Assembly: GCA_963749155.1 (NCBI GenBank)
Contig: CAVVLO010000002.1
Location: 960,001 to 1,024,000, forward strand
DNA length: 64,000 bases
Direction of reading: 5' to 3'
DNA from: an uncultured Armatimonadia bacterium
GTDB taxonomy: Bacteria; Armatimonadota; Zipacnadia; CAVVLO01
The notes below the pieces were generated by a model. It worked only from the letters and a program-made list of their open reading frames with translations, was not told the origin of the DNA and searched no databases. Positions 41,848 through 54,578 of the stretch are shown piece by piece. Every line of letters begins with the position of its first letter. Position 1 is the first letter of the stretch. The translations under genes and the position numbers were made by a program.

Positions 41848-42954
41848 ATGAAACCGCATCGATTGATACTGGTAGCCCTTGGGCTCTGTCTGATATCGGC
41901 ACTCGGCTGGGCCGGGTCTGTCACAGGGATTGTCTTTCTGGATGAAAATGCTAGTGGCGCTCGTGAAGCAGGTGAGGCAGGCATCGCAGGAGTGCAGGTC
42001 TCGGATGGCTTCACTCTTGCCCAGACAAATGCCGAGGGAACTTATGCCTTGACTGTGCCTGAGGGATATGCGGTGGTGCGGGTCACTAATCCAACCGGTT
42101 ATTGGTTCTCAGGACCTTTCTGGAAAGGCTTCGAATCAACCAGTGAGCCAATACAGGCCGATTTTGCGCTCATAAAGCAGGAGCAATCGCTGCCGGTGAC
42201 GTTTGCTGATATGACTGACGTCCACGTAAACGATACGGGTTTCCCGCGTTTCCAGGAGTTTATTGGACGCCTTAACGCGCAAGAACCTGCTCCGGCTTTC
42301 GTCATTGCGACAGGCGACCTGGTGATGGATGTACTGGGAGCGAAGACACCAGAACAAGTTGATCATCTTTATGGACTATACGAAACCGCCACGGCTGACC
42401 TCAAGCTGCGTCTTTTCAACTTGCCAGGCAACCACGAGCATGTCGGGTGGAATAGCGATTTTGATCGCGCCCATCCCTGGTTTGCCAAAGGCGCTTATCA
42501 GCGCAAGCTTGGGCCCCTTTATTACTCTCTTAATTATGGGCCTTATCATTTGCTGCTGCTGGACGCGACTACCCAGAATCCTGACGGTGGCTATTTCGAA
42601 GAGATCACCCCTGATTGCCTGGCCTGGCTCGAACAAGAGCTTGCCGCTACGCCGAAAGACTCGTTTCTCGTAGTGTTTGCCCATGAGCCCTTTTACGGCC
42701 TGCGTAATCGCTTCGCCCTGGGCAAATTGCTGACACGCGACCATAAGGTGGTTGCCTGCTTCAGTGGTCATACTCACAACCGGGACCATTATTACTTCTT
42801 TGGGGCGAAGGCCGAAGGCGCAGGAGCGGTCAGCGGTAGTTGGTGGAATGGCCCTAGTCCCGATGGCACTCCTGAAGGCTGCCTGCTTGTGACACTCGGG
42901 CCGCAGGGCATCGTGGACTGGACTTTCCTTGAAGGCTTCCCCAAAGTCGAATAA
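41848..42954 (+). CDS. Secreted calcineurin-like metallophosphoesterase with N-terminal beta-sandwich domain
   Basis: Signal peptide; GVQVSDG N-domain; DVH, GDLV, GNHE, HEP and GHTH motifs. Confidence 0.85.
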   Translation: MKPHRLILVALGLCLISALGWAGSVTGIVFLDENASGAREAGEAGIAGVQVSDGFTLAQTNAEGTYALTVPEGYAVVRVTNPTGYWFSGPFWKGFESTSEPIQADFALIKQEQSLPVTFADMTDVHVNDTGFPRFQEFIGRLNAQEPAPAFVIATGDLVMDVLGAKTPEQVDHLYGLYETATADLKLRLFNLPGNHEHVGWNSDFDRAHPWFAKGAYQRKLGPLYYSLNYGPYHLLLLDATTQNPDGGYFEEITPDCLAWLEQELAATPKDSFLVVFAHEPFYGLRNRFALGKLLTRDHKVVACFSGHTHNRDHYYFFGAKAEGAGAVSGSWWNGPSPDGTPEGCLLVTLGPQGIVDWTFLEGFPKVE

Positions 42955-42984
42955 CACTTTGTAAATTATCTGAAAATAGTCCTC

Positions 42985-43015
42985 TTGCGGTCGCCTTCGG
43001 GCGGCCGCAACTCTT
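42985..43015 (+). terminator. GC-rich hairpin, probable terminator
   Basis: TTGCGGTCGCC-TTCG-GGCGGCCGCAA followed by CTCTT (weak tail). Confidence 0.55.
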
Positions 43016-43043
43016 GGCAACTCGTTTTGTCTCAAGTTATAAT
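43014..43043 (+). promoter_or_regulatory. Sigma70-type promoter of porin operon 1
   Basis: TTGGCA-18 nt-TATAAT; the same arrangement precedes operons 2 and 3. Confidence 0.7.
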
Positions 43044-43065
43044 GCGGCAGTTGGGCTAGCCGAAG

Positions 43066-43177
43066 GACGCTGGCAATCCGGTCGAGAAGGAGGTGCCCCC
43101 CGAGGCCACGCAAAAGCGTCACTCAAGTCAACCACTCAAGCTCAAAAAAGCCAAAGAGAGGCAACATGGTAACTCTC
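43066..43177 (+). ncRNA. Putative structured 5' leader RNA, copy 1
   Basis: GACGC/GCGTC closing stem around a conserved GGYAATC-GGYC-GGAGGTG-AGGCCACGC core, then the hairpin GAGAG-GCAACATGGTAA-CTCTC. Confidence 0.55.
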
Positions 43178-43255
43178 AAAGGCCGTCGGGCTTTGCAGGT
43201 TGATGCTGGAGTTTTCCCAACTCGCAGTAAACAACCATATGGGGGTTACACCAAA

Positions 43256-44991
43256 GTGAAAAAACTCGCAATCGCAGTAGTAGCGCTAGCGCTACTCGCG
43301 CTCGTGCTTGCCCCCGCGATGGCCAAGGATATGCCCGATGTTCCGTTCACCCACTGGGCCTATGACGCAGTGGACGAACTCACCGACATCGGCATTCTGC
43401 AGGGCTATCCGGACGGCACCTACAAAGGCCAGAGGACTCTTACCCGCTATGAGTTCGCCGAGGCCACAGTCAAGCTCGTGCATTACCTCGAGAACTACGT
43501 AGACGAAAAGACCGCCGCCCTGGAGGCTGGCGTTGACGCCGCCGAGGCGCGCGCTATCGCCAAGGACGAGGCCGCCAAAGCCGTTGCGGCCATCAAGCTG
43601 CCGACCTTCGACATGACGATGGATCAGGTTCGGGCCGCCGCTGCCGCCGCTGGCGCGCAGGCTGCCAAAGACGCCCTGGCCGGTATGAGCCCTGGCGTTA
43701 CCAAAGCCGAGGTTCAGGCCATGATCGATGGCGCAGTGCGCAACCTCGTGACCAAAGACTACGTTGACAACCTGGCCGCGGAGTTCCGCGCCGATATCCA
43801 GGAGCTTGGCGTAGATGTCGACGATCTGATGTATCGCGTCGACCAGCTCGAAGCCAAGCTTGTTGCCCTCGATGGCCGCGTATACGCCCTCGAGAACAAG
43901 CCTGACAAGGTCACTGGCAACCTCAAGTGGCGCGTCGGCACCGCCGAAGCCGTCAATGGCATGTATGTCGGCAACTGGGAGCGTTTCAGCAACCTGGAAG
44001 TGCGCGTCAACATCGACGGCAAGATCTCCGACAAGGCCCAGGGCCATATCGGTATCTGGCGTCCGGATGCCACCTATGACTGGGACAACCGCGGCACCCA
44101 CATCGACACCGCTTACGTAGATGTCCAGGACGGCCTGTTCAAGGGCGTAGACTGGCGCTTCGGCAAGCAGTACTACAAGACCGGCTGCGGCCTGACCTTC
44201 GACAACAATACCATCCCCGCAGAGGCCATCAAAGCCAACTTCACGCTGGCTGGCATCGACTTCACCGCTCTGCTGGGCTTCATCGACTCCTCGGCCCCAA
44301 GTTGGTTCAACTCGGGCGACGAGGAAGAGATCCAGGTCTACTCGGCTGCTTACGACTTTGGCCGACTTGGCCTGGTGGGCACGCTACTGCAGCGGGCCGA
44401 CTTCTATGGCGACTATGAAGCCGAGCGCTGGGGCATCGCCGCGATGTACGATGGGCTGGATATCCCGTTCTTCGGGCTCCAGGCTGATGTCGCTGGCGAG
44501 TATACGCAGCTCAAGGACTGGGTCGCGGACAACGCCTGGTACCTCGAAGCCAAGATCGCCGGGGCTGGCTATGAGCCTGGCGACCTGATGCTGAAGGCGA
44601 CCTTCTCCGACAACGAGGACATCTGGTACTGGCTGCGCAGTCGGCGTCAACTACAACGGCATGGTTATGTACAACGGCCTTGCCTGGGACTGGCTCCTGG
44701 ACGACAACAGCGTAATCGGCACCTACGGCGGCAAGACCTGGAGCGCCGCTCTCTCCAAGGACCTCGGTGGCATGGATGCGTTGCTGCGCTGGGTACGTTT
44801 CGACGATGGTCAGCCTTTGGATGATAACGGCTATTTCCGGGCCTGGTGATAGTGCCGACCTGTGGCAACTCAGCCTGACCAAGGAGATCGCCAAGGGCGT
44901 AGACGCCAAGCTGACTTATGCTCTGCTCGATGACGATTACCTGGATGACAGGTTCGACTACTTCGCTGGCTCCATCGACGTGAGCTTCTAA
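43256..44991 (+). CDS. SLH-domain outer-membrane beta-barrel protein (OmpM-like), copy A1; two +1 insertions at 44642 and 44848
   Basis: Signal peptide, SLH motif (DVPFTHWAYDAV...GYPDGTYKG..TLTRYEFA), coiled-coil stalk, beta-rich C-domain ending in Phe. Nearly identical to intact copy A3 apart from two extra bases and a few SNPs. Confidence 0.88.
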
Positions 44992-45005
44992 CTGGCAAAA
45001 GCAAC

Positions 45006-45031
45006 TGGGGGCGGGGTTCGCCTCGCCCCCA
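45006..45031 (+). promoter_or_regulatory. Intercistronic UUCG hairpin between A and B genes (also 48951-48976 and 52800-52825)
   Basis: TGGGGGCGRGG-TTCG-CCTCGCCCCCA, 11-bp stem, no U tail. Confidence 0.7.
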
Positions 45032-45052
45032 CTCCCTAAGGGGGATATACTA

Positions 45053-46879
45053 ATGAAGACACTAGCACTGGCAGTGACCATGTTGTTGATGGTTGCTTTG
45101 CTCGTGCCAGCCGTCGCCAAGGATATGCCGGACGTGCCCTTCGGTCACTGGGCCTACGACGCGGTGGACGAACTCACCGATCTGGGCGTAGTCGAAGGTT
45201 ATCCGGATGGCACTTTCAAAGGCGACCGGACCTGGACGCGCTATGAATTCGCGGTAATGCTCACGCGGATGATCGACTTCCTGGAGGACTACCTTGATTC
45301 GAAGGTAGCCGGGATGGATATGGGCATCACCGAGTCGGCGGCTCGCGCCATCGCTCGGGAAGAGGCCCAGAAAGCTGCCGCGGGCGTGCAACTGCCTGAC
45401 GTCGCGGCTTTCATGAACCAGGTTAACAGCACCGCCACCTCGGCTGGAGCAGCAGCGGCTCGCGAAGCGCTTGCGGGCTACAAGCCAGGCATCTCGAAGG
45501 CCGAGGCGCAGGCAATGATCGACGCCGCGGTCAAGAACTTCGTGGACAAGGGCGCCCTCGATGCGATGGCGCAGGAGTTCCGCGGCGAGCTTGCGATGCT
45601 GGGCGCCGACGTGGACGACCTGATGTACAGGGTCGACGCGCTGGAGACCAAGTTCGCGGCCCTCGAAGCGCGGGTAACCGCCCTCGAGAACAAGCCCGAC
45701 AAAGTCACTGGCGTAATCGAGTGGAAAGCTGGCACCAACGAGTTCCCCGAGACTGGCGAGATCAATCCCAATGAGAACCTTGTTGGACTCGGTGCGCCTG
45801 CCCGCGACTATCTACCCGCTGGCCCAGGCTGGAACCGCTTCAGCAATCTCTCGGTCAAGGTAAACATCGACGGTAAAATCAGCGACAAGGCTCAGGGCCA
45901 TATCACTCTGTGGCGTCCCGATGCCACCTACGATTATATGGGCCGGGGCACCCACATCGACACTGCTTACGTGGATGTCCAGGATGGCCTTTTCAAGGGC
46001 GTAGACTGGCGTCTTGGCAAGCAGTATTTCAAGACAGGCTGTGGCCTGGTATTCGACAATGACCTGTTCCCTTCAGAAGCTGCCAAGCTGAGCTTTAATC
46101 TTGGCGGACTAGATCTGACTGGCTTCTTCGGCTGGACCGACTTCAGTCCAATGGAGGAAGCGTCCGAAGAACCGACCTATGTTGGCGAGGCCAAGTATAG
46201 CTTCGGACGACTCGACCTGGACGGTACCTATATGTTCAGGGGCGAAGGCGGCGCCAGGCGCTGGGGCATCGCGGCTGGGTACGAAGGGCTGGACGTGCCC
46301 TTCTTTGGGCTCAAAGCCAATGTCAAGGGCGAATGGGCTTCGATCGTAGATGCAATAGGGGGCGGAGTGCTGCCTCCTGGTATCTCGGACGAGGCTTATT
46401 ATGCCCGCGCAGATATCATGGGCAAGGGTTGGGAACCAGGCGACTGGATGTTTACAACCACCTGGGCCGAGCAGCAGCTTGGTTATCTGGCCCTCCTCAA
46501 CAGCACCCATCCATATAGCCTGGGCGTTCTCTACAATGGCTTGCCCTGGGACTATATGCTCAGCGACAACGTGACAATGGGCCAGCCTGGCATGTTCGCT
46601 TATAGCGCTGGGCTGTCTGGAGAACTGGCTAATATGCCTGTCAGTCTCCGTTGGGCGCGTTGGTCACCAACTGGAGCTTTGCTGGCTGCACTCGGCGCTC
46701 CAGCCGGCGTAGACTTCGACATCGACGTCTACCAGGTGACCCTCGACAAGGAACTGGCAGAAGGAGTTATGGCTCGCCTTACCTGGGCCAACTTCAAGCC
46801 AAGCATCGACTCTCCAGTTCCTATACCCTACGACCTGGAAGCGCAGTACGTTGGTGGTTCCATCAACGTGCTGTTCTAA
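45053..46879 (+). CDS. SLH-domain outer-membrane beta-barrel protein (OmpM-like), copy B1
   Basis: 608 aa: signal peptide, SLH, coiled coil, C-terminal GGSINVLF. Confidence 0.88.
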   Translation: MKTLALAVTMLLMVALLVPAVAKDMPDVPFGHWAYDAVDELTDLGVVEGYPDGTFKGDRTWTRYEFAVMLTRMIDFLEDYLDSKVAGMDMGITESAARAIAREEAQKAAAGVQLPDVAAFMNQVNSTATSAGAAAAREALAGYKPGISKAEAQAMIDAAVKNFVDKGALDAMAQEFRGELAMLGADVDDLMYRVDALETKFAALEARVTALENKPDKVTGVIEWKAGTNEFPETGEINPNENLVGLGAPARDYLPAGPGWNRFSNLSVKVNIDGKISDKAQGHITLWRPDATYDYMGRGTHIDTAYVDVQDGLFKGVDWRLGKQYFKTGCGLVFDNDLFPSEAAKLSFNLGGLDLTGFFGWTDFSPMEEASEEPTYVGEAKYSFGRLDLDGTYMFRGEGGARRWGIAAGYEGLDVPFFGLKANVKGEWASIVDAIGGGVLPPGISDEAYYARADIMGKGWEPGDWMFTTTWAEQQLGYLALLNSTHPYSLGVLYNGLPWDYMLSDNVTMGQPGMFAYSAGLSGELANMPVSLRWARWSPTGALLAALGAPAGVDFDIDVYQVTLDKELAEGVMARLTWANFKPSIDSPVPIPYDLEAQYVGGSINVLF

Positions 46880-46901
46880 GCAACATTCAAACCCGCAACA
46901 G

Positions 46902-46935
46902 AGAGTCCGGGGCTTCGGCTTCGGACTCTTTTTTT
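46902..46935 (+). terminator. Rho-independent terminator of porin operon 1
   Basis: AGAGTCCGGGGC-TTCG-GCTTCGGACTCT followed by a T tract. Confidence 0.85.
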
Positions 46936-46945
46936 GTGATATGGG

Positions 46946-46974
46946 TTGGCAGAAAAGCAATCTCGTATTACAAT
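46946..46974 (+). promoter_or_regulatory. Sigma70-type promoter of porin operon 2
   Basis: TTGGCA-17 nt-TACAAT. Confidence 0.7.
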
Positions 46975-46993
46975 ATTTTACAGAAGTTTTACA

Positions 46994-47116
46994 GAGAGCT
47001 GCGGTAATCGGGCCACCAGGGAGGTGAGCTTCGAGGCCACGCCAAGTTCTCAAATAAGTCACTTCGTGGGCAGTCCGAGAGTAGGACGAGGCAACACGGT
47101 GACTCCTCTACCCTCG
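46994..47116 (+). ncRNA. Putative structured 5' leader RNA, copy 2
   Basis: GAGAGCT/AGTTCTC closing stem around the same core, then the hairpin GAG-GCAACACGGTGA-CTC. Confidence 0.55.
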
Positions 47117-47175
47117 TGACTTCCCTATAACGATTAAGTTCGTCAGGTAATATCCCAAATTAGGGGGGGTCATAA

Positions 47176-48936
47176 GTGAAACCACTTGCAGCTACGGTAG
47201 TAGCGCTAGCGCTACTCGCGCTCGTGCTTGCCCCCGCGATGGCCAAGGATATGCCCGATGTTCCGTTCACCCACTGGGCCTATGACGCAGTGGACGAACT
47301 CACCGACATCGGCATTCTGCAGGGCTATCCGGACGGCACCTACAAAGGCCAGAGGACTCTTACCCGCTATGAGTTCGCCGAGGCCACAGTCAAGCTCGTG
47401 CATTACCTCGAGAACTACGTAGACGAAAAGACCGCCGCCCTGGAGGCTGGCGTTGACGCCGCCGAGGCGCGCGCTATCGCCAAGGACGAGGCCGCCAAAG
47501 CAGTCGCGGCCATCAAGCTGCCGACCTTCGACATGACGATGGATCAGGTTCGGGCCGCCGCTGCCGCCGCTGGCGCGCAGGCTGCCAAAGACGCCCTGGC
47601 CGGTATGAGCCCTGGCGTTACCAAAGCCGAGGTTCAGGCCATGATTGATGGCGCAGTGCGCAACCTCGTGACCAAAGACTACGTTGACAACCTGGCCGCG
47701 GAGTTCCGCGCCGATATCCAGGAGCTTGGCGTTGACGTAGACGATCTGATGTACCGCGTTGACCAGCTCGAAGCCAAACTTGTTGCCCTCGATGGCCGCG
47801 TATACGCCCTCGAGAACAAGCCTGACAAGGTCACTGGCAACCTCAAGTGGCGCGTCGGCACCGCCGAGGCTGCTAATGAGTATTACGATGCCATGTATGG
47901 GTGGATCAACTATCCAGGTAACTGGGAGCGCTTCAGCAACCTGGAAGTGCGCGTCAACATCGATGGCAAGATCTCGGACAAGGCCCAGGGCCATATCGGT
48001 ATCTGGCGTCCAGATGCCACCTATGACTGGGACAACCGTGGCACCCATATCGACACCGCTTACGTGGATGTCCAGGACGGCCTGTTCAAGGGCGTAGACT
48101 GGCGCTTCGGCAAGCAGTATCTGAAGACCGGCTGCGGCCTGACCTTCGACAACAATACCATCCCCGCCGAAGCCATCAAGGCCAACTTCACACTGGCTGG
48201 TATCGACTTCACCGCTCTGCTGGGCTTCATCGATGCCTCCGACCCGAGCTACTTTATGAGTGGCGACGAGGAAGAGATCCAGGTCTACTCGGCTGCTTAC
48301 AGCTTCGGCCGGCTTGGCCTGGTGGGTACGCTGCTCGAGCGCGCTGATTTCTATGGCGACTACGAAGCCGAGCGCTGGGGCATCGCCGCGATGTACGATG
48401 GGCTGGATATCCCGTTCTTCGGACTCCAGGCTGACGTCGCTGGCGAGTATACCCAGCTTGAGGACTGGGTTGCAGACAACGCCTGGTACCTCGAAGCCAA
48501 GATCGCCAAGAAGGGTTACGAGCCTGGCGACCTGATGCTGAAGGCGACCTTCTCCGACAACGAGGACATCTGGTACTGGCTTCGTTCGGCTGTCAACTAC
48601 AATGGCATGGTGCTGTATAACGGCCTTGCCTGGGACTGGATCCTGGACGACAACAGCCTGGTAGGCACCTTCGGCGGCAAGACCTGGAGCGCCGCTCTCT
48701 CCAAGGACCTCGGTGGCGTAGACGCACTGCTGCGCTGGGTGCGTTACACTGACAGCCAACCGCTCGATGACAATGGCAACTTCTGGACCTACGATGACGC
48801 CGACCTGTGGCAACTCAGCCTGACCAAGGAGATCGCCAAAGGTGTAGACGCCAAGCTGACCTATGCCCAACTCAATGACAAAGCCTTCGATGAGAAGTTC
48901 GACTACTTCGCTGGCTCGATCGACGTGAGTTTCTAA
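47176..48936 (+). CDS. SLH-domain outer-membrane beta-barrel protein (OmpM-like), copy A2
   Basis: 586 aa with the same N-terminal stalk as A1/A3 and substituted loop segments; ends AGSIDVSF. Confidence 0.88.
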   Translation: MKPLAATVVALALLALVLAPAMAKDMPDVPFTHWAYDAVDELTDIGILQGYPDGTYKGQRTLTRYEFAEATVKLVHYLENYVDEKTAALEAGVDAAEARAIAKDEAAKAVAAIKLPTFDMTMDQVRAAAAAAGAQAAKDALAGMSPGVTKAEVQAMIDGAVRNLVTKDYVDNLAAEFRADIQELGVDVDDLMYRVDQLEAKLVALDGRVYALENKPDKVTGNLKWRVGTAEAANEYYDAMYGWINYPGNWERFSNLEVRVNIDGKISDKAQGHIGIWRPDATYDWDNRGTHIDTAYVDVQDGLFKGVDWRFGKQYLKTGCGLTFDNNTIPAEAIKANFTLAGIDFTALLGFIDASDPSYFMSGDEEEIQVYSAAYSFGRLGLVGTLLERADFYGDYEAERWGIAAMYDGLDIPFFGLQADVAGEYTQLEDWVADNAWYLEAKIAKKGYEPGDLMLKATFSDNEDIWYWLRSAVNYNGMVLYNGLAWDWILDDNSLVGTFGGKTWSAALSKDLGGVDALLRWVRYTDSQPLDDNGNFWTYDDADLWQLSLTKEIAKGVDAKLTYAQLNDKAFDEKFDYFAGSIDVSF

Positions 48937-48999
48937 CTGGCAAAAGCAACTGGGGGCGAGGTTCGCCTCGCCCCCACTCCCTATAAGGGGGATATACTA

Positions 49000-50734
49000 A
49001 TGAAGACACTAGCCTTGGCAGTGACCCTTCTGTTGATGGTCGCTTTGCTCGTGCCAGCCGTCGCCAAGGATATGCCGGACGTGCCCTTCGGTCACTGGGC
49101 CTACGACGCGGTGGACGAACTCACCGATCTGGGCGTAGTCGAAGGTTATCCGGATGGCACTTTCAAAGGCGACCGGACCTGGACGCGCTATGAATTCGCG
49201 GTAATGCTCACGCGGATGATCGACTTCCTGGAGGACTACCTCGATTCGAAGGTAGCCGGGATGGATATGGGCATCACCGAGTCGGCGGCTCGCGCCATCG
49301 CTCGGGAAGAGGCCCAGAAAGCTGCCGCGGGCGTGCAACTGCCTGACGTCGCGGCTTTCATGAACCAGGTTAACAGCACAGCCACCTCGGCAGGTGCAGC
49401 AGCGGCTCGCGAAGCGCTTGCGGGCTACAAGCCGGGCATCTCGAAGGCCGAGGCGCAGGCAATGATCGACGCCGCGGTCAAGAACTTCGTGGACAAGGGC
49501 GCCCTCGATGCGATGGCGCAGGAGTTCCGCGGCGAGCTTGCGATGCTGGGCGCCGACGTGGACGACCTGATGTACAGGGTCGATGCGCTGGAGACCAAGT
49601 TCGCGGCCCTGGAAGCGCGGGTAACCGCCCTCGAGAACAAGCCCGACAAAGTCACTGGCGTAATCGAGTGGAAAGCTGGCTCTGTCGAGCCACTTGGCTT
49701 TGGGATGTATGGGCCATATGCTCGTAGCTGGGAACGTTTCAGCAACCTCTCGGTTAAGATCAACATCGATGGCAAGATCTCCGACAAGGCCCAGGGCCAT
49801 ATCGGTATCTGGCGTCCGGATGCCACCTATGACTGGGACAACCGCGGCACCCATATCGATACCGCTTACGTAGATGTCCAGGACGGCCTGTTCAAGGGCG
49901 TAGACTGGCGTTTTGGCAAGCAGTATTTCAAGACAGGCTATGGCCTGGTTTTTGATAATGACATACAGCCTTCCGAAGCTGTCAAACTCAACTTCCAACT
50001 GGGCGCACTTGATCTGACCGGTTTCTTCGGTTGGACCGATTGCCCCTATGGCTTTGGCGATGAAGATCCAACTTATGTTGGTGAAGCCAAATACAACATC
50101 GGCAGGCTTACACTGGATGGCACGTATGTCTTCCGGTCTGAAGTTGGCGCCAAGCGTTGGGGCATTGCAGCTGGGTACAAGGGGCTCGATGTGCCGTTCT
50201 TCGGCGCTAAAGCTGACCTCAAAGGCGAGTTCGGCGAGGTAATCAACGGCAACGGCGGAGGAGGAGTACCGTCCTCCATCGACAACGCCTATTTTGCGCG
50301 CGCTGACTTTATGGGCAACGGTTATGAGCCAGGCGACTTCAAACTCGGAGTAAGCTGGTCCGAGCAGCAGCGGGCATACCGTCCGTGGCTATGGAGCGGT
50401 TCGACTTATGACCATTATGTCCATTATGGCAGCTCGGCGATCGGCTCAGCCTGGGACTTCCTGCCTAGGCGAGAATTTCCAGGTTGGCGGACTGCTCTCG
50501 GGTACCCGCTGGACTGGCGAGATCGAGAAGGATCTTGGCAACCTAGGCCTGTTCCTTCGTTACGCGCAAATGAAAACTTGGGGTGCTCCTGAATATAGCA
50601 AGCTTTATCAGCTTGCTCTGGACAAGGAACTAGCCGATGGGGTCAACGCCAAGCTGACCTACGCGCGGATTGACTATGGTATGTTGGACACCGAGACCGA
50701 CTACTTCGGCGGCTCCATCAACGTAGACTTCTAA
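49000..50734 (+). CDS. SLH-domain outer-membrane beta-barrel protein (OmpM-like), copy B2; +1 frameshift at ~50464
   Basis: ORF 49000..50592 joins ORF 50408..50734 after AWDFL; ends GGSINVDF. Confidence 0.85.
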
Positions 50735-50757
50735 CCGGTTAGTTCAAGCGACACAAA

Positions 50758-50790
50758 AGAGCCCGGGGCTTCGGCCCCGGGCTTCTGTTT
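50758..50790 (+). terminator. Rho-independent terminator of porin operon 2
   Basis: AGCCCGGGGC-TTCG-GCCCCGGGCT followed by TCTGTTT. Confidence 0.8.
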
Positions 50791-50805
50791 GGGAGGATAC
50801 TACTG

Positions 50806-50834
50806 TTGGCAGAACGTGATTTTCCAGATACAAT
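50806..50834 (+). promoter_or_regulatory. Sigma70-type promoter of porin operon 3
   Basis: TTGGCA-17 nt-TACAAT. Confidence 0.7.
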
Positions 50835-50857
50835 AACAACAGGTTGGAAAGCAGAGG

Positions 50858-50973
50858 GGCGCTGGTAATCTGGCCAAAAAGGAGGTGTCCCCCAAGGCCA
50901 CGCCGAGGCGTCACTCAAGTCAGCTCAAAGAGAATCTGAAGGAGAACTCGAGAGGCAACTAGGATACTCCCGA
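50858..50973 (+). ncRNA. Putative structured 5' leader RNA, copy 3
   Basis: GGCGC/GCGTC closing stem around the same core, then the hairpin TCGAGAG-GCAACTAGGATA-CTCCCGA. Confidence 0.55.
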
Positions 50974-51051
50974 TCTTCCTCCTTCTTTTCTCCTTGTGAT
51001 GATGCTTGGGTATGCCAACCCGAATGTATACACCAACAAGGGGAAATCAAA

Positions 51052-52785
51052 GTGAAAAAACTCGCAATCGCAGTAGTAGCGCTAGCGCTGCTCGCGCTCG
51101 TACTTGCCCCCGCGATGGCCAAGGATATGCCCGATGTTCCGTTCACCCACTGGGCCTATGACGCAGTGGACGAACTCACCGACATCGGCATTCTGCAGGG
51201 CTATCCGGACGGCACCTACAAAGGCCAGAGGACTCTTACCCGCTATGAGTTCGCCGAGGCCACAGTCAAGCTCGTGCATTACCTCGAGAACTACGTAGAC
51301 GAAAAGACCGCCGCCCTGGAGGCTGGCGTTGACGCCGCCGAGGCGCGCGCTATCGCCAAGGACGAGGCCGCCAAAGCCGTCGCAGCCATCAAGCTGCCGA
51401 CCTTCGACATGACGATGGATCAGGTTCGGGCCGCCGCTGCCGCCGCTGGCGCGCAGGCTGCCAAAGACGCCCTGGCCGGCATGAGCCCTGGCGTTACCAA
51501 AGCCGAGGTTCAGGCCATGATCGATGGCGCAGTGCGCAACCTCGTGACCAAAGACTACGTTGACAACCTGGCCGCGGAGTTCCGCGCCGATATCCAGGAG
51601 CTTGGCGTAGATGTCGACGATCTGATGTATCGCGTCGACCAGCTCGAAGCCAAGCTTGTTGCCCTCGATGGCCGCGTATACGCCCTCGAGAACAAGCCTG
51701 ACAAGGTCACTGGCAACCTCAAGTGGCGCGTCGGCACCGCCGAAGCCGTCAATGGCATGTATGTCGGCAACTGGGAGCGTTTCAGCAACCTGGAAGTGCG
51801 CGTCAACATCGACGGCAAGATCTCCGACAAGGCCCAGGGCCATATCGGTATCTGGCGTCCGGATGCCACCTATGACTGGGACAACCGCGGCACCCACATC
51901 GACACCGCTTACGTAGATGTCCAGGACGGCCTGTTCAAGGGCGTAGACTGGCGCTTCGGCAAGCAGTACTACAAGACCGGCTGCGGCCTGACCTTCGACA
52001 ACAATACCATCCCCGCAGAGGCCATCAAAGCCAACTTCACGCTGGCTGGTATCGACTTCACCGCTCTGCTGGGCTTCATCGACTCCTCGGCCCCAAGTTG
52101 GTTCAACTCGGGCGACGAGGAAGAGATCCAGGTCTACTCGGCTGCTTACGACTTTGGCCGACTTGGCCTGGTGGGCACGCTACTGCAGCGGGCCGACTTC
52201 TATGGCGACTATGAAGCCGAGCGCTGGGGCATCGCCGCGATGTACGATGGGCTGGATATCCCGTTCTTCGGGCTCCAGGCTGATGTCGCTGGCGAGTATA
52301 CGCAGCTCAAGGACTGGGTCGCGGACAACGCCTGGTACCTCGAAGCCAAGATCGCCGGGGCTGGCTATGAGCCTGGCGACCTGATGCTGAAGGCGACCTT
52401 CTCCGACAACGAGGACATCTGGTACTGGCTGCGCAGTGGCGTCAACTACAACGGCATGGTTATGTACAACGGCCTTGCCTGGGACTGGCTCCTGGACGAC
52501 AACAGCGTAATCGGCACCTACGGCGGCAAGACCTGGAGCGCCGCTCTCTCCAAGGACCTCGGTGGCATGGATGCGTTGCTGCGCTGGGTACGTTTCGACG
52601 ATGGTCAGCCTTTGGATGATAACGGCTATTTCCGGGCCTGGTATAGTGCCGACCTGTGGCAACTCAGCCTGACCAAGGAGATCGCCAAGGGCGTAGACGC
52701 CAAGCTGACTTATGCTCTGCTCGATGACGATTACCTGGATGACAGGTTCGACTACTTCGCTGGCTCCATCGACGTGAGCTTCTAA
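51052..52785 (+). CDS. SLH-domain outer-membrane beta-barrel protein (OmpM-like), copy A3
   Basis: 577 aa intact ORF: signal peptide, SLH, coiled coil, terminal Phe. Confidence 0.9.
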   Translation: MKKLAIAVVALALLALVLAPAMAKDMPDVPFTHWAYDAVDELTDIGILQGYPDGTYKGQRTLTRYEFAEATVKLVHYLENYVDEKTAALEAGVDAAEARAIAKDEAAKAVAAIKLPTFDMTMDQVRAAAAAAGAQAAKDALAGMSPGVTKAEVQAMIDGAVRNLVTKDYVDNLAAEFRADIQELGVDVDDLMYRVDQLEAKLVALDGRVYALENKPDKVTGNLKWRVGTAEAVNGMYVGNWERFSNLEVRVNIDGKISDKAQGHIGIWRPDATYDWDNRGTHIDTAYVDVQDGLFKGVDWRFGKQYYKTGCGLTFDNNTIPAEAIKANFTLAGIDFTALLGFIDSSAPSWFNSGDEEEIQVYSAAYDFGRLGLVGTLLQRADFYGDYEAERWGIAAMYDGLDIPFFGLQADVAGEYTQLKDWVADNAWYLEAKIAGAGYEPGDLMLKATFSDNEDIWYWLRSGVNYNGMVMYNGLAWDWLLDDNSVIGTYGGKTWSAALSKDLGGMDALLRWVRFDDGQPLDDNGYFRAWYSADLWQLSLTKEIAKGVDAKLTYALLDDDYLDDRFDYFAGSIDVSF

Positions 52786-52846
52786 CTGGCAAAAGCAACT
52801 GGGGGCGGGGTTCGCCTCGCCCCCACTCCCTAAGGGGGATATACTA

Positions 52847-54578
52847 ATGAAGACACTAGCACTGGCAGTGACCATGTTGTTGATGGTTGCTTTGCTCGTG
52901 CCAGCCGTCGCCAAGGATATGCCAGACGTGCCCTTCGGTCACTGGGCCTACGACGCGGTGGACGAACTCACCGATCTGGGCGTAGTCGAAGGTTATCCGG
53001 ATGGCACTTTCAAAGGCGACCGGACCTGGACGCGCTATGAATTCGCGGTAATGCTCACGCGGATGATCGACTTCCTGGAGGACTACCTCGATTCGAAGGT
53101 AGCCGGGATGGATATGGGCATCACCGAGTCGGCGGCTCGCGCCATCGCTCGGGAAGAGGCCCAGAAAGCTGCCGCGGGCGTGCAACTGCCTGACGTCGCG
53201 GCTTTCATGAACCAGGTTAACAGCACCGCCACCTCGGCTGGAGCAGCAGCGGCTCGCGAAGCGCTTGCGGGCTACAAGCCAGGCATCTCGAAGGCCGAGG
53301 CGCAGGCAATGATCGACGCCGCGGTCAAGAACTTCGTGGACAAGGGCGCCCTCGATGCGATGGCGCAGGAGTTCCGCGGCGAGCTTGCGATGCTGGGCGC
53401 CGACGTGGACGACCTGATGTACAGGGTCGACGCGCTGGAGACCAAGTTCGCGGCCCTCGAAGCGCGGGTAACCGCCCTCGAGAACAAGCCCGACAAAGTC
53501 ACTGGCGTAATCGAGTGGAAAGCTGGTACCGCCAATGATGGCAGCAGCTGGAATCGCTTCAGCAACCTTGACTTGAAGGTAAACATCGATGGCAAAATAA
53601 GTGACAAGGCCCAGGGCCATGTCACCCTGTGGCGTCCGGATGCCACCTACGACTGGGACGAGCGCGGCACTCACATCGACACCGCTTACGTAGACGTCCA
53701 GGATGGCCTGTTCAAGGGCTTCGACTGGCGTTTGGGCAAGCAGTATTACAAGACCGGCTGCGGTCTGACCTTCGATAACGATGTCATGCCCGCCGAAGCT
53801 GTCAAGCTCAACTTCGACCTGCTTGGCGCCGATGCGACCGTGTTCTGGGGTACCAGCGATTACGCCGATAGCTGGTTTGGCTATGACGATGAGATGGTCA
53901 CCCTGCTTTACAACCTCAAGAAGCAGTTCGGCCATCTGACCCTGGATGGCACTTTCGTCGATCGCAACCTGTGGGAAGATGAGCAGCGTTGGGGCATCGC
54001 CGCAATGTATGAGGGGCTGGACGTGCCGTTCTTCGGCCTGAAGGCTGACCTCGAGGGCGAGTATACCCAATATGACAAGCCCTGGACTTCCTACAACTCC
54101 TACTACACTGGAGCCACGTTGAAGGGCAAGAACTATGAGCCGGGCGACTTGAAGCTCAAGCTGACCTTCGCAGACAATCCCTACTATGACGAGTACTGGC
54201 CTTACCAGAACGGCTTCATCACCTATGATGGATTTGTCTGGTACAGCAACCTGGCCTGGGACTTCCTTCTTGTCGGATGCCCCGAACCTGGGCGTGCCCT
54301 ACGGGAAGACCTGGAGCGCTACTCTGACCAAGGATCTGGGCTGCGTGGACGCGCTGCTGCGCTGGCGCAAATATGTACCCGACAATGCGGCCGGGTACAT
54401 CTACCTGGATTCCTGGGGCTACTCTTACCTTTACAACCAGGGCGACCTGTGGCAGCTCAGCCTCACCAAGGAGCTTGCAGAGGGCGTAGACGCCAAGCTG
54501 ACTTATGCTCAGCTCAATGACAACTATTACGATGAGACCTACAAGTACTTTGGTGGCAGCATCAACGTAGGCTTCTAA
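52847..54578 (+). CDS. SLH-domain outer-membrane beta-barrel protein (OmpM-like), copy B3; +1 frameshift at ~54271
   Basis: ORF 52847..54520 joins ORF 54186..54578 after AWDFLL; ends GGSINVGF. Confidence 0.85.

Follow-up and report, generated by a model that had tools for sequence, protein, structure and literature searches.

In diderm Terrabacteria, OmpM-type SLH porins serve as the principal tether of the outer membrane and as its main nutrient channel (PMC10628300). A structured RNA located upstream of SLH-domain genes has been described before. Stav et al. (2019, BMC Microbiol 19:66, PMC6429828) reported a riboswitch candidate that they named "SLH"; its 80 examples come from Synergistia, Negativicutes, Clostridia and metagenomes, and one of them is in Thermovirga lienii (NC_016148.1/613490-613841). 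About 60% of the examples precede SLH-domain genes, and the ligand is guessed by the authors to have a role in cell-wall signaling. The present analysis concerns a two-hairpin leader RNA that precedes each of three tandem SLH-porin operons in the genome of an uncultured Armatimonadia bacterium. The stretch of DNA analyzed, called the window below, comprises 64,000 nucleotides (nt) of contig CAVVLO010000002.1, positions 960,001 to 1,024,000 of the forward strand. According to its published description, the SLH candidate resembles this leader in being a structured RNA 5' of SLH-domain genes of diderm Terrabacteria, with no known ligand for either, and differs from it in the reported taxa; the comparison is one of gene association and description only.

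A second relevant system is the cry3A STAB-SD of Bacillus thuringiensis, a Shine-Dalgarno (SD)-like tract that binds the 30S ribosomal subunit, blocks RNase J1 and stabilizes the mRNA (PMC4113751). Like STAB-SD as described there, the leader has an SD-like tract that lies far 5' of the start codon of a highly expressed mRNA, is complementary to 16S rRNA and is not used for initiation. Unlike STAB-SD, the tract is placed at the tip of a long conserved hairpin, is partly paired and is accompanied by a second conserved hairpin; the leader also persists in families without detected RNase J, and it is not a homologue of STAB-SD. The 5' untranslated region of Escherichia coli ompA is comparable in that it, too, is a folded leader that begins close to the 5' end of the mRNA of an abundant outer-membrane protein, but it is not known to be related in sequence to the element described here. 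Nor is the ompA leader known to have an upstream super-SD tract.

The leader is an inherited, class-wide element of SLH-porin mRNAs that is also found in parts of the phylum, and it probably controls the output of the main envelope protein. Its most conserved part is a purine tract complementary to the 3' tail of 16S rRNA, which suggests that the ribosome rather than a metabolite is the partner. The explanation that we prefer, with a probability of roughly 45%, is that the leader acts in cis by docking the 30S subunit and would thereby stabilize or load the mRNA of OmpM-type SLH porins.

Distribution of the leader

Porin homologues were located by protein search, and the DNA upstream of them was then inspected. 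Homologues are present in 75 of the 79 genomes of the class. At 26 of 29 porin loci the upstream DNA contains a block of the form AGG-N-AAC, 2-5 nt, GG-NN-ACT about 100-175 nt before the start codon, and in most of those loci a purine tract within a long hairpin is found 60-95 nt 5' of this second block. The hairpin with the purine tract is called module 1 here, and the hairpin that contains the second block module 2.

A model of module 2 (R2; 29 sequences, including four from this genome) identifies 84 sites, four of them in this genome, in 63 of the 79 class genomes at E<=0.01. Signal-peptide open reading frames begin 84-175 nt downstream of 70 of these sites; nine others have no recognizable start within the sequence examined, mostly at contig ends, and five lack the pattern. 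The porins of motif-bearing genomes are only ~30-38% identical over their barrels. Outside the class, R2 finds module 2 in 12 of 137 sampled genomes of other classes of the phylum (E<=0.001), and the two of these that were inspected both have it 5' of signal-peptide SLH proteins, with variant first modules. A first-pass annotation of this DNA, which had singled out the leaders of the three window operons, made its interpretation depend on homologues upstream of such genes elsewhere. These are present, and the feature is real and much broader than was flagged.

Other searches were less productive. A module 1 model built from the four paralogues of this genome (R1) scores 75-85 bits on its own copies but is too narrow for searching: its matches in 78 class relatives are at chance level (nine genomes, E 0.018-0.096), and it gives two weak matches in the phylum sample. 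A DNA pattern with fixed spacing yielded noise in 40 relatives; elsewhere it hit 17 genome and 22 metagenome loci, which all score at most 25.1 bits with R1 and were treated as chance.

Structure and covariation of the two modules

Module 1 begins ~16 nt from the predicted transcript start and is a long irregular hairpin. It is built from an outer helix of variable sequence (P1), a 5' bulge ending in CC or CU (AAUCC, AAACC, ACUCC and similar), a short helix P2 (GGC with GCC in relatives, GGYC with GRCC in the window), an A/G-rich junction and an apical mini-hairpin, P3. Together with its extension, P1 forms 15-20 pairs near the 5' end. The 5' strand of P3 lies within the almost invariant purine tract, and its 3' strand is C/U-rich; 63 of 64 relatives have the tract unchanged, and this invariance is confined to one strand. 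Invariant A-U and G-C pairs and a covarying stem close the hairpin of module 2, whose conserved purine-rich loop is 13-14 nt long.

Covariation in module 1 was scored on the aligned leaders of 64 relatives, with a model derived from 49 relatives only (R3). All nine pairs of P1 vary on both sides, and 85.8% of cells are paired. The module 1 score of 0.394 compares with 0.199 in shuffles, none of 500 reaching the native value, and slid controls give at most 0.157. P2 is invariant but for one GC-to-CG flip in three sequences, and P3 varies on its 3' side only, with 87% of cells paired. The module 2 stem, scored on 29 sequences, has 74.4% of cells paired and a covariation score of 0.338 versus 0.109 in shuffles (0/500 as high; slid controls 0.06-0.13).

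Because the module 1 alignment had been fitted to its own model, an alignment-free arm-swap test was added, in which the 5' arm of a leader was paired either with its own 3' arm or with that of another family, using one leader per family. Native arms pair better in both stems: -26.0 versus -18.5 kcal/mol for P1 and -16.7 versus -10.8 kcal/mol for module 2, with no derangement among 21844 as low in either case. G-U pairs are frequent in P1, so the helix fits the mRNA strand only. The earlier proposal of a covarying, structured leader on the mRNA strand of SLH-porin operons is therefore upheld by relatives, in which both stems covary over some 60-80 independent sites.

The same kind of test gave no support for a closing helix between the 5' flank and the region before the ribosome-binding site (RBS), with native and deranged values of -21.7 and -20.6 kcal/mol and 4317 of 22122 derangements as low. 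Pairing of the RBS with a pyrimidine tract that follows module 2 is borderline (6-7% of derangements). In leaders of genus g13 of family f7 (L139, L141, L143, L145, L146, L148, L169), a CUCUCAG near the 5' end complements a CUGAGAG ~25 nt before the start codon, and a second CUCGC directly follows module 2; the leaders of this genus may carry several anti-RBS strands.

Complementarity of the apical tract to 16S rRNA

The 16S rRNA 3' end of this genome reads ...GATCACCTCCTTTC, and the window tracts AAGGAGGTG, AGGGAGGTG and AAAGGAGGTG can form nine to ten pairs with this tail. The tract of relatives, GAAGGGAGG, forms nine pairs, one of them a wobble, in a register shifted by two. Predicted duplex energies with the 16S tail were compared in 59 leaders in which the anchor was present. 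The tract gives -14.9 +/- 0.7 kcal/mol and the gene's own RBS -9.9 +/- 2.8 kcal/mol; the tract is the stronger of the two, and indeed the strongest 16S-pairing site of the leader, in 59 of 59 cases (in window copy 1, -16.3 versus -9.6 kcal/mol). The tract stays at about -14.8 kcal/mol even in leaders whose real site, through decay, reaches no more than -4 to -6 kcal/mol. A start codon follows the tract at 4-13 nt in a single one of the 59 leaders, versus ~38% expected in random sequence.

The invariant strand is one-sided, and its letters differ by lineage while the fit to a fixed partner is kept; selection for pairing with the 16S tail is therefore the best explanation of its conservation.

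Leader copies in the window genome

The strings quoted in the first-pass annotation all occur in the window where it placed them, and the closing stems do pair (GACGC/GCGTC, GAGAGCT/AGTTCTC and GGCGCT/GGCGTC), as does the inner helix GGYC/GRCC. What had been delimited as the element was module 1; module 2, about half of the whole, was missed. Pairwise comparison of the three window copies gives 61-82% identity for the core, 60-72% for the second block (at about 43150-43183, 47070-47124 and 50934-50988) and 28-52% further downstream, but 16-24% for the linker. In copy 1, the apical purine tract and, directly 3' of it, a C-run (43096-43101) are situated between the two P2 strands.

A fourth copy is found on another contig of the same genome (G000:C3:65680-65750, minus strand), 5' of a fourth porin gene whose 5' end is almost identical to those of the window porin genes. 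With this copy included, core identity is about 60-82%. The sequence of its closing stem differs again, and in its inner helix U-A takes the place of the U-G or C-G of the others. Four paralogues by themselves are weak evidence of covariation, and the decisive support comes from the relatives. Single-sequence folding is ordinary for copies 1 (z +0.64) and 3 (z -0.41), and copy 2 alone stands out (z -2.84).

Two remoter porin paralogues of the genome have degenerate versions of the leader only. Module 2 is weak in both, with 17.3 bits at L221 (G000:C2:1378750-1379900, minus strand, locus positions ~160-300) and 14.8 bits at L220 (G000:C2:761800-762950, locus positions ~980-1040). The tip of module 1 appears to be inverted at L221, with the C-rich strand preceding the GGAGG strand, and a gene for a protein with a prepilin-type N-terminal methylation motif (487-1137 of the locus, plus strand) adjoins this porin paralogue.

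The window version of module 2 has all the invariant positions of module 2 of the relatives. In nhmmer searches of both strands of the whole window with relatives-only profiles, the top match of the module 2 profile is module 2 of copy 3 (50940-50982, E 0.0093), and that of the module 1 profile is module 1 of the same copy (50868-50908, E 0.082).

Transcription of the leaders

Four metatranscriptome runs contain parts of the locus as contigs; these begin 8-12 nt 3' of the predicted starts, span the motif and continue into coding sequence. The deepest is a contig of 242 nt (depth 27.6, ~91% identical to the window) that covers 43067-43297 plus nine letters upstream; it starts ~8 nt after the predicted start and crosses the start codon. 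In this contig, A for G at 43066 and T for C at 43120 together convert the outer P1 pair from G-C to A-U, and A for G at 43105 makes a P2 pair U-A. Beyond the shared 5' coding region, contigs extend into the copy 4 leader by 177, 114 and 176 nt. The two longest come from different studies, yet their ends, ~12 nt 3' of the predicted start, differ by no more than 1 nt.

The contig ends speak against a transcription start downstream of the motif, the possibility on which the first-pass annotation had hung its reading, but they are a weak hint, because contigs cannot prove the end of a transcript and DNA carry-over is possible. Neither leader 2 (46770-47166) nor the DNA 5' of promoter 1 is represented among the contigs, which cannot show absence.

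What the leader may do

The 30S-docking model can be set out as follows. Near the 5' end of the mRNA, the tip of module 1 presents a tract that can pair over 9-10 nt with the 16S 3' tail. This tract may dock the 30S subunit there, or compete for it, and the docked subunit together with the 5' hairpin would protect an abundant mRNA from 5'-end-dependent decay. Alternatively or in addition, the tract might load ribosomes on behalf of the real ribosome site, which is weak in many leaders. The second hairpin of the same element is module 2, with its conserved purine-rich loop. Docking is favored because the ribosome is the sole partner that is present everywhere, and it fits the most conserved part of the leader better than a riboswitch does.

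Several observations weigh against this proposal. The tract is partly paired with the C/U-rich 3' strand of P3, so it is not freely exposed. If an SD-like tract were all that mattered, module 2, the conserved AAUCC-type bulge and the long scaffold would be superfluous, and module 2 is left unexplained whether the leader docks ribosomes or acts as a switch. The SD-likeness of the tip is partly circular, since the anchor was found with a GGAGG-type pattern; this does not apply to the constancy of the duplex energy, to the extension of pairing into the flanks or to the comparison with the real site. The tie between the window and its relatives is also loose in module 1: the best window match of R3 (50867-50900, 11.5 bits, E 0.28 with filters off) is not significant, R3 with default filters finds no match in the window, and copies 1 and 2 are not independently detected by relatives-only models. 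Homology of module 1 is accepted because two weak top matches coincide and because order, spacing and gene context agree, not on the strength of a significant score. Finally, RNase J, scored by TIGR00649 at E<=1e-30, was not found in families f7 (0/17), f13 (0/4) and f3 (0/2), although these families retain the motif. The window's genome does have RNase J, and the enzyme was found in 42 of the 79 class genomes and in 17 of 18 genomes of family f10. A roadblock to RNase J was rejected as the shared mechanism, because the motif persists in families without detected RNase J.

The main rival reading, which we think less likely, is that the leader is a riboswitch-like or protein-responsive translational switch. 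The invariant purine tract would then mimic an SD and keep a C/U-rich anti-SD strand paired in P3. A factor bound to the conserved loops (module 2 and the bulge) would free this strand to mask the real site, or the reverse. Covarying stems around invariant unpaired bases are a pattern typical of factor-binding RNAs, and a motif with the same gene association was rated a riboswitch candidate by the Breaker laboratory (PMC6429828). Moreover, in lineages with an odd RBS it is the real site, rather than the invariant 5' strand, that the P3 3' strand matches better: the matches UCUCGC/GCGAGA, CCUCUC/GAGAGG, CCCCCC/GGGGG (window copy 1) and UUACCCUCC/GGAGGGUAA are of this kind, they occur in family f15, in copies 1, 3 and 4 of this genome and in a number of f7 lineages, and in those cases the native duplex beats 98-100% of the partners from other families. 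However, the anti-SD/RBS match is not significant when each family is represented by one leader (native -9.1 versus -8.2 kcal/mol; 2576 of 33017 derangements as low, or 7.8%, and 7.3% in a repeat), and window copy 2 has no such match. Folding predicts that the real site pairs chiefly with the pyrimidine tract 3' of module 2 (0.25) and the 5' arm (0.23), whereas the P3 strand reaches 0.05. No ligand is indicated, and the three window leaders contain no terminator, which rejects an attenuator. Nor does the mimic track the real site, for which a fixed partner such as 16S rRNA fits better. The suggestion of a cis-regulatory RNA with which the analysis began is sound in its conserved structured leader, but a riboswitch is a candidate reading only and the most conserved part is a ribosome-binding-like tract.

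A helix as long as P1 with its extension, placed near the 5' end, might also serve chiefly as a processing or protection site, either as a target of a double-strand RNase or as a cap-like 5' hairpin of the E. coli ompA kind, with the SD-like tract incidental. In E. coli, 5'-terminal hairpins stabilize porin mRNAs. We regard this as improbable, since pure structure accounts neither for a one-stranded tract that is so nearly invariant nor for its constant fit to the 16S tail. Far less credible is a CsrA platform of GGA motifs in hairpin loops, as in flagellin leaders. Relatives do have AGGA-type motifs in the module 2 loop, the apical tract and the real ribosome site, and the window's genome encodes CsrA, but csrA sits there between fliW and flagellin, and the window module 2 loops are mostly without GGA. 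CsrA is found in only 30 of the 79 class genomes, with 0/18 in f10 and 3/17 in f7, both of which keep the motif; in CsrA-less f10 the motif is present in 16 of 18 genomes, and several f10 and f7 genomes are 95-98% complete. As a family-wide partner CsrA was therefore rejected, missing as it is from whole families that keep the motif. We assign an equally slight chance to the view that the leaders have no RNA-level function and reflect residual similarity of recently duplicated operons or a short leader peptide. The four copies are indeed paralogues with nearly identical coding 5' ends, and in the window copies short reading frames start at a GTG within the tract. Yet both modules recur in 63 of 79 genomes with divergent porins and their stems show compensatory changes, which residual similarity does not explain. 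The leader peptide was rejected on the grounds that differences between copies fall on first codon positions, that the frame ends after nine codons in copy 4, and that a start codon is so rarely found at working distance after the tract.

The presence of both RNase J and CsrA in the class is patchy at the level of families, which is notable for the mRNA-decay biology of the group; CsrA is encoded, for example, in 7 of 7 genomes of family f2. The csrA gene of the window's genome (locus L093, G000:C2:406487-409639) lies between fliW-like and flagellin genes, 3' of a gene of the flagellar hook-associated type. This is the FliW-CsrA-flagellin gene order that is known from Bacillus.

Operons, promoters and neighboring genes

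The positions of the window features are given in Table 1. All six genes of the three operons encode SLH-domain proteins, and SLH is the sole Pfam family above the curated cut-off in each of them. A sigma-70-like promoter precedes each operon; the core motif of each leader lies ~20-25 nt 3' of the end of the -10 box, and the leaders are 200-215 nt long.

Table 1. Features of the three SLH-porin operons and their leaders (window coordinates).
Feature	Positions	Strand	Details	Support
Module 1, copy 1	43066..43120	+	P1 43066-70/43116-20; 5' bulge AATCC 43075-79; P2 43080-83/43104-07	R1 83.3 bits
Apical SD-like tract, copy 1	43087..43095	+	AAGGAGGTG; nine Watson-Crick pairs with 16S 3' tail	
Module 2, copy 1	43140..43194	+	loop AGGCAAC-AT-GGTAACT 43159-43174, closed by GAGAG/CTCTC	R2 28.8 bits
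Module 1, copy 2	46994..47051	+	P1 GAGAGCT 46994-47000/AGTTCTC 47045-51; SD-like tract 47018-47026	R1 83.6 bits
Module 2, copy 2	47070..47124	+	conserved loop 47089-47104	R2 28.4 bits
Module 1, copy 3	50858..50912	+	P1 50858-63/50907-12; SD-like tract 50878-50887	R1 85.1 bits
Module 2, copy 3	50934..50988	+	conserved loop 50953-50968	R2 33.2 bits
Promoter-like site, operon 1	43014..43043	+	TTGGCA, 18-nt spacer, TATAAT; -10 box ends at 43043	11/12 matches
Promoter-like site, operon 2	46946..46974	+	-10 box ends at 46974	10/12 matches
Promoter-like site, operon 3	50806..50834	+	-10 box ends at 50834	10/12 matches
Real ribosome site and start, porin gene 1	43241..43258	+	GGGGG; GTG start	
Operon 1	43256..46879	+	two SLH-domain porin genes, 43256-44824 and 45053-46879	Pfam SLH
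Operon 2	47176..50592	+	two SLH-domain porin genes, 47176-48936 and 49000-50592	Pfam SLH
Operon 3	51052..54520	+	two SLH-domain porin genes, 51052-52785 and 52847-54520	Pfam SLH

A query of the ESM Atlas with the porin returned SLH clusters only, from Synergistota, Rifleibacteriota and Armatimonadota. The 5' parts of the first genes of the four porin operons (window 43256-54520; G000:C3 ~62300-65570) are 96-100% identical over ~460 residues, which comprise the signal peptide, SLH and coiled coil; the barrel ends differ. In-frame stops (one TAG or TAA) are found in the second gene of the contig-3 operon and in two gene tails. The combination of 5' identity, barrel divergence and stops suggests gene conversion among the porin paralogues, and perhaps that one porin copy is broken. 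Directly upstream of operon 1, at 41848-42954, is a gene for a calcineurin-like metallophosphoesterase with an SdrD B-like N-terminal domain.

Relation to known RNAs and significance

No family in Rfam 15 matches the leader: there is no match at the gathering score anywhere in the window, and nothing relevant at E<=10 over 42900-51100 or at E<=1 over the loci of 15 relatives. The weak matches that do occur fall on terminators of upstream operons or are due to chance. A literature search on OmpM/SLH leaders and SLH RNA motifs returned the orphan SLH candidate (PMC6429828) as the sole relevant item, and a term search of two later discovery papers from the same laboratory found neither SLH nor porin nor outer membrane. 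The first-pass description of an undescribed cis-regulatory RNA therefore agrees with Rfam 15, but its novelty is limited, and made doubtful, by a published candidate with the same gene association.

A bolder view, which we hold to be quite doubtful, is that the leader is an uncatalogued, phylum-wide RNA device in which a scaffold-held upstream "super" ribosome-binding tract and a second hairpin recruit or gate the 30S subunit for the main outer-membrane tether and porin of diderm Terrabacteria. Such a device would partly replace the decayed local site, may respond to an envelope-related signal, and may be one and the same ancient element as the orphan SLH candidate of other phyla.

A leader that is conserved over the class and parts of the phylum offers a concrete handle on the very high expression of SLH porins, with the tract, P1, P3 and the module 2 loop as targets for mutation. 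If it is true that the tract recruits ribosomes for genes whose own sites have decayed, this would be an unusual mode of initiation control. And if the element is the published SLH motif, its complementarity to 16S rRNA would offer an explanation other than a riboswitch for that orphan candidate.

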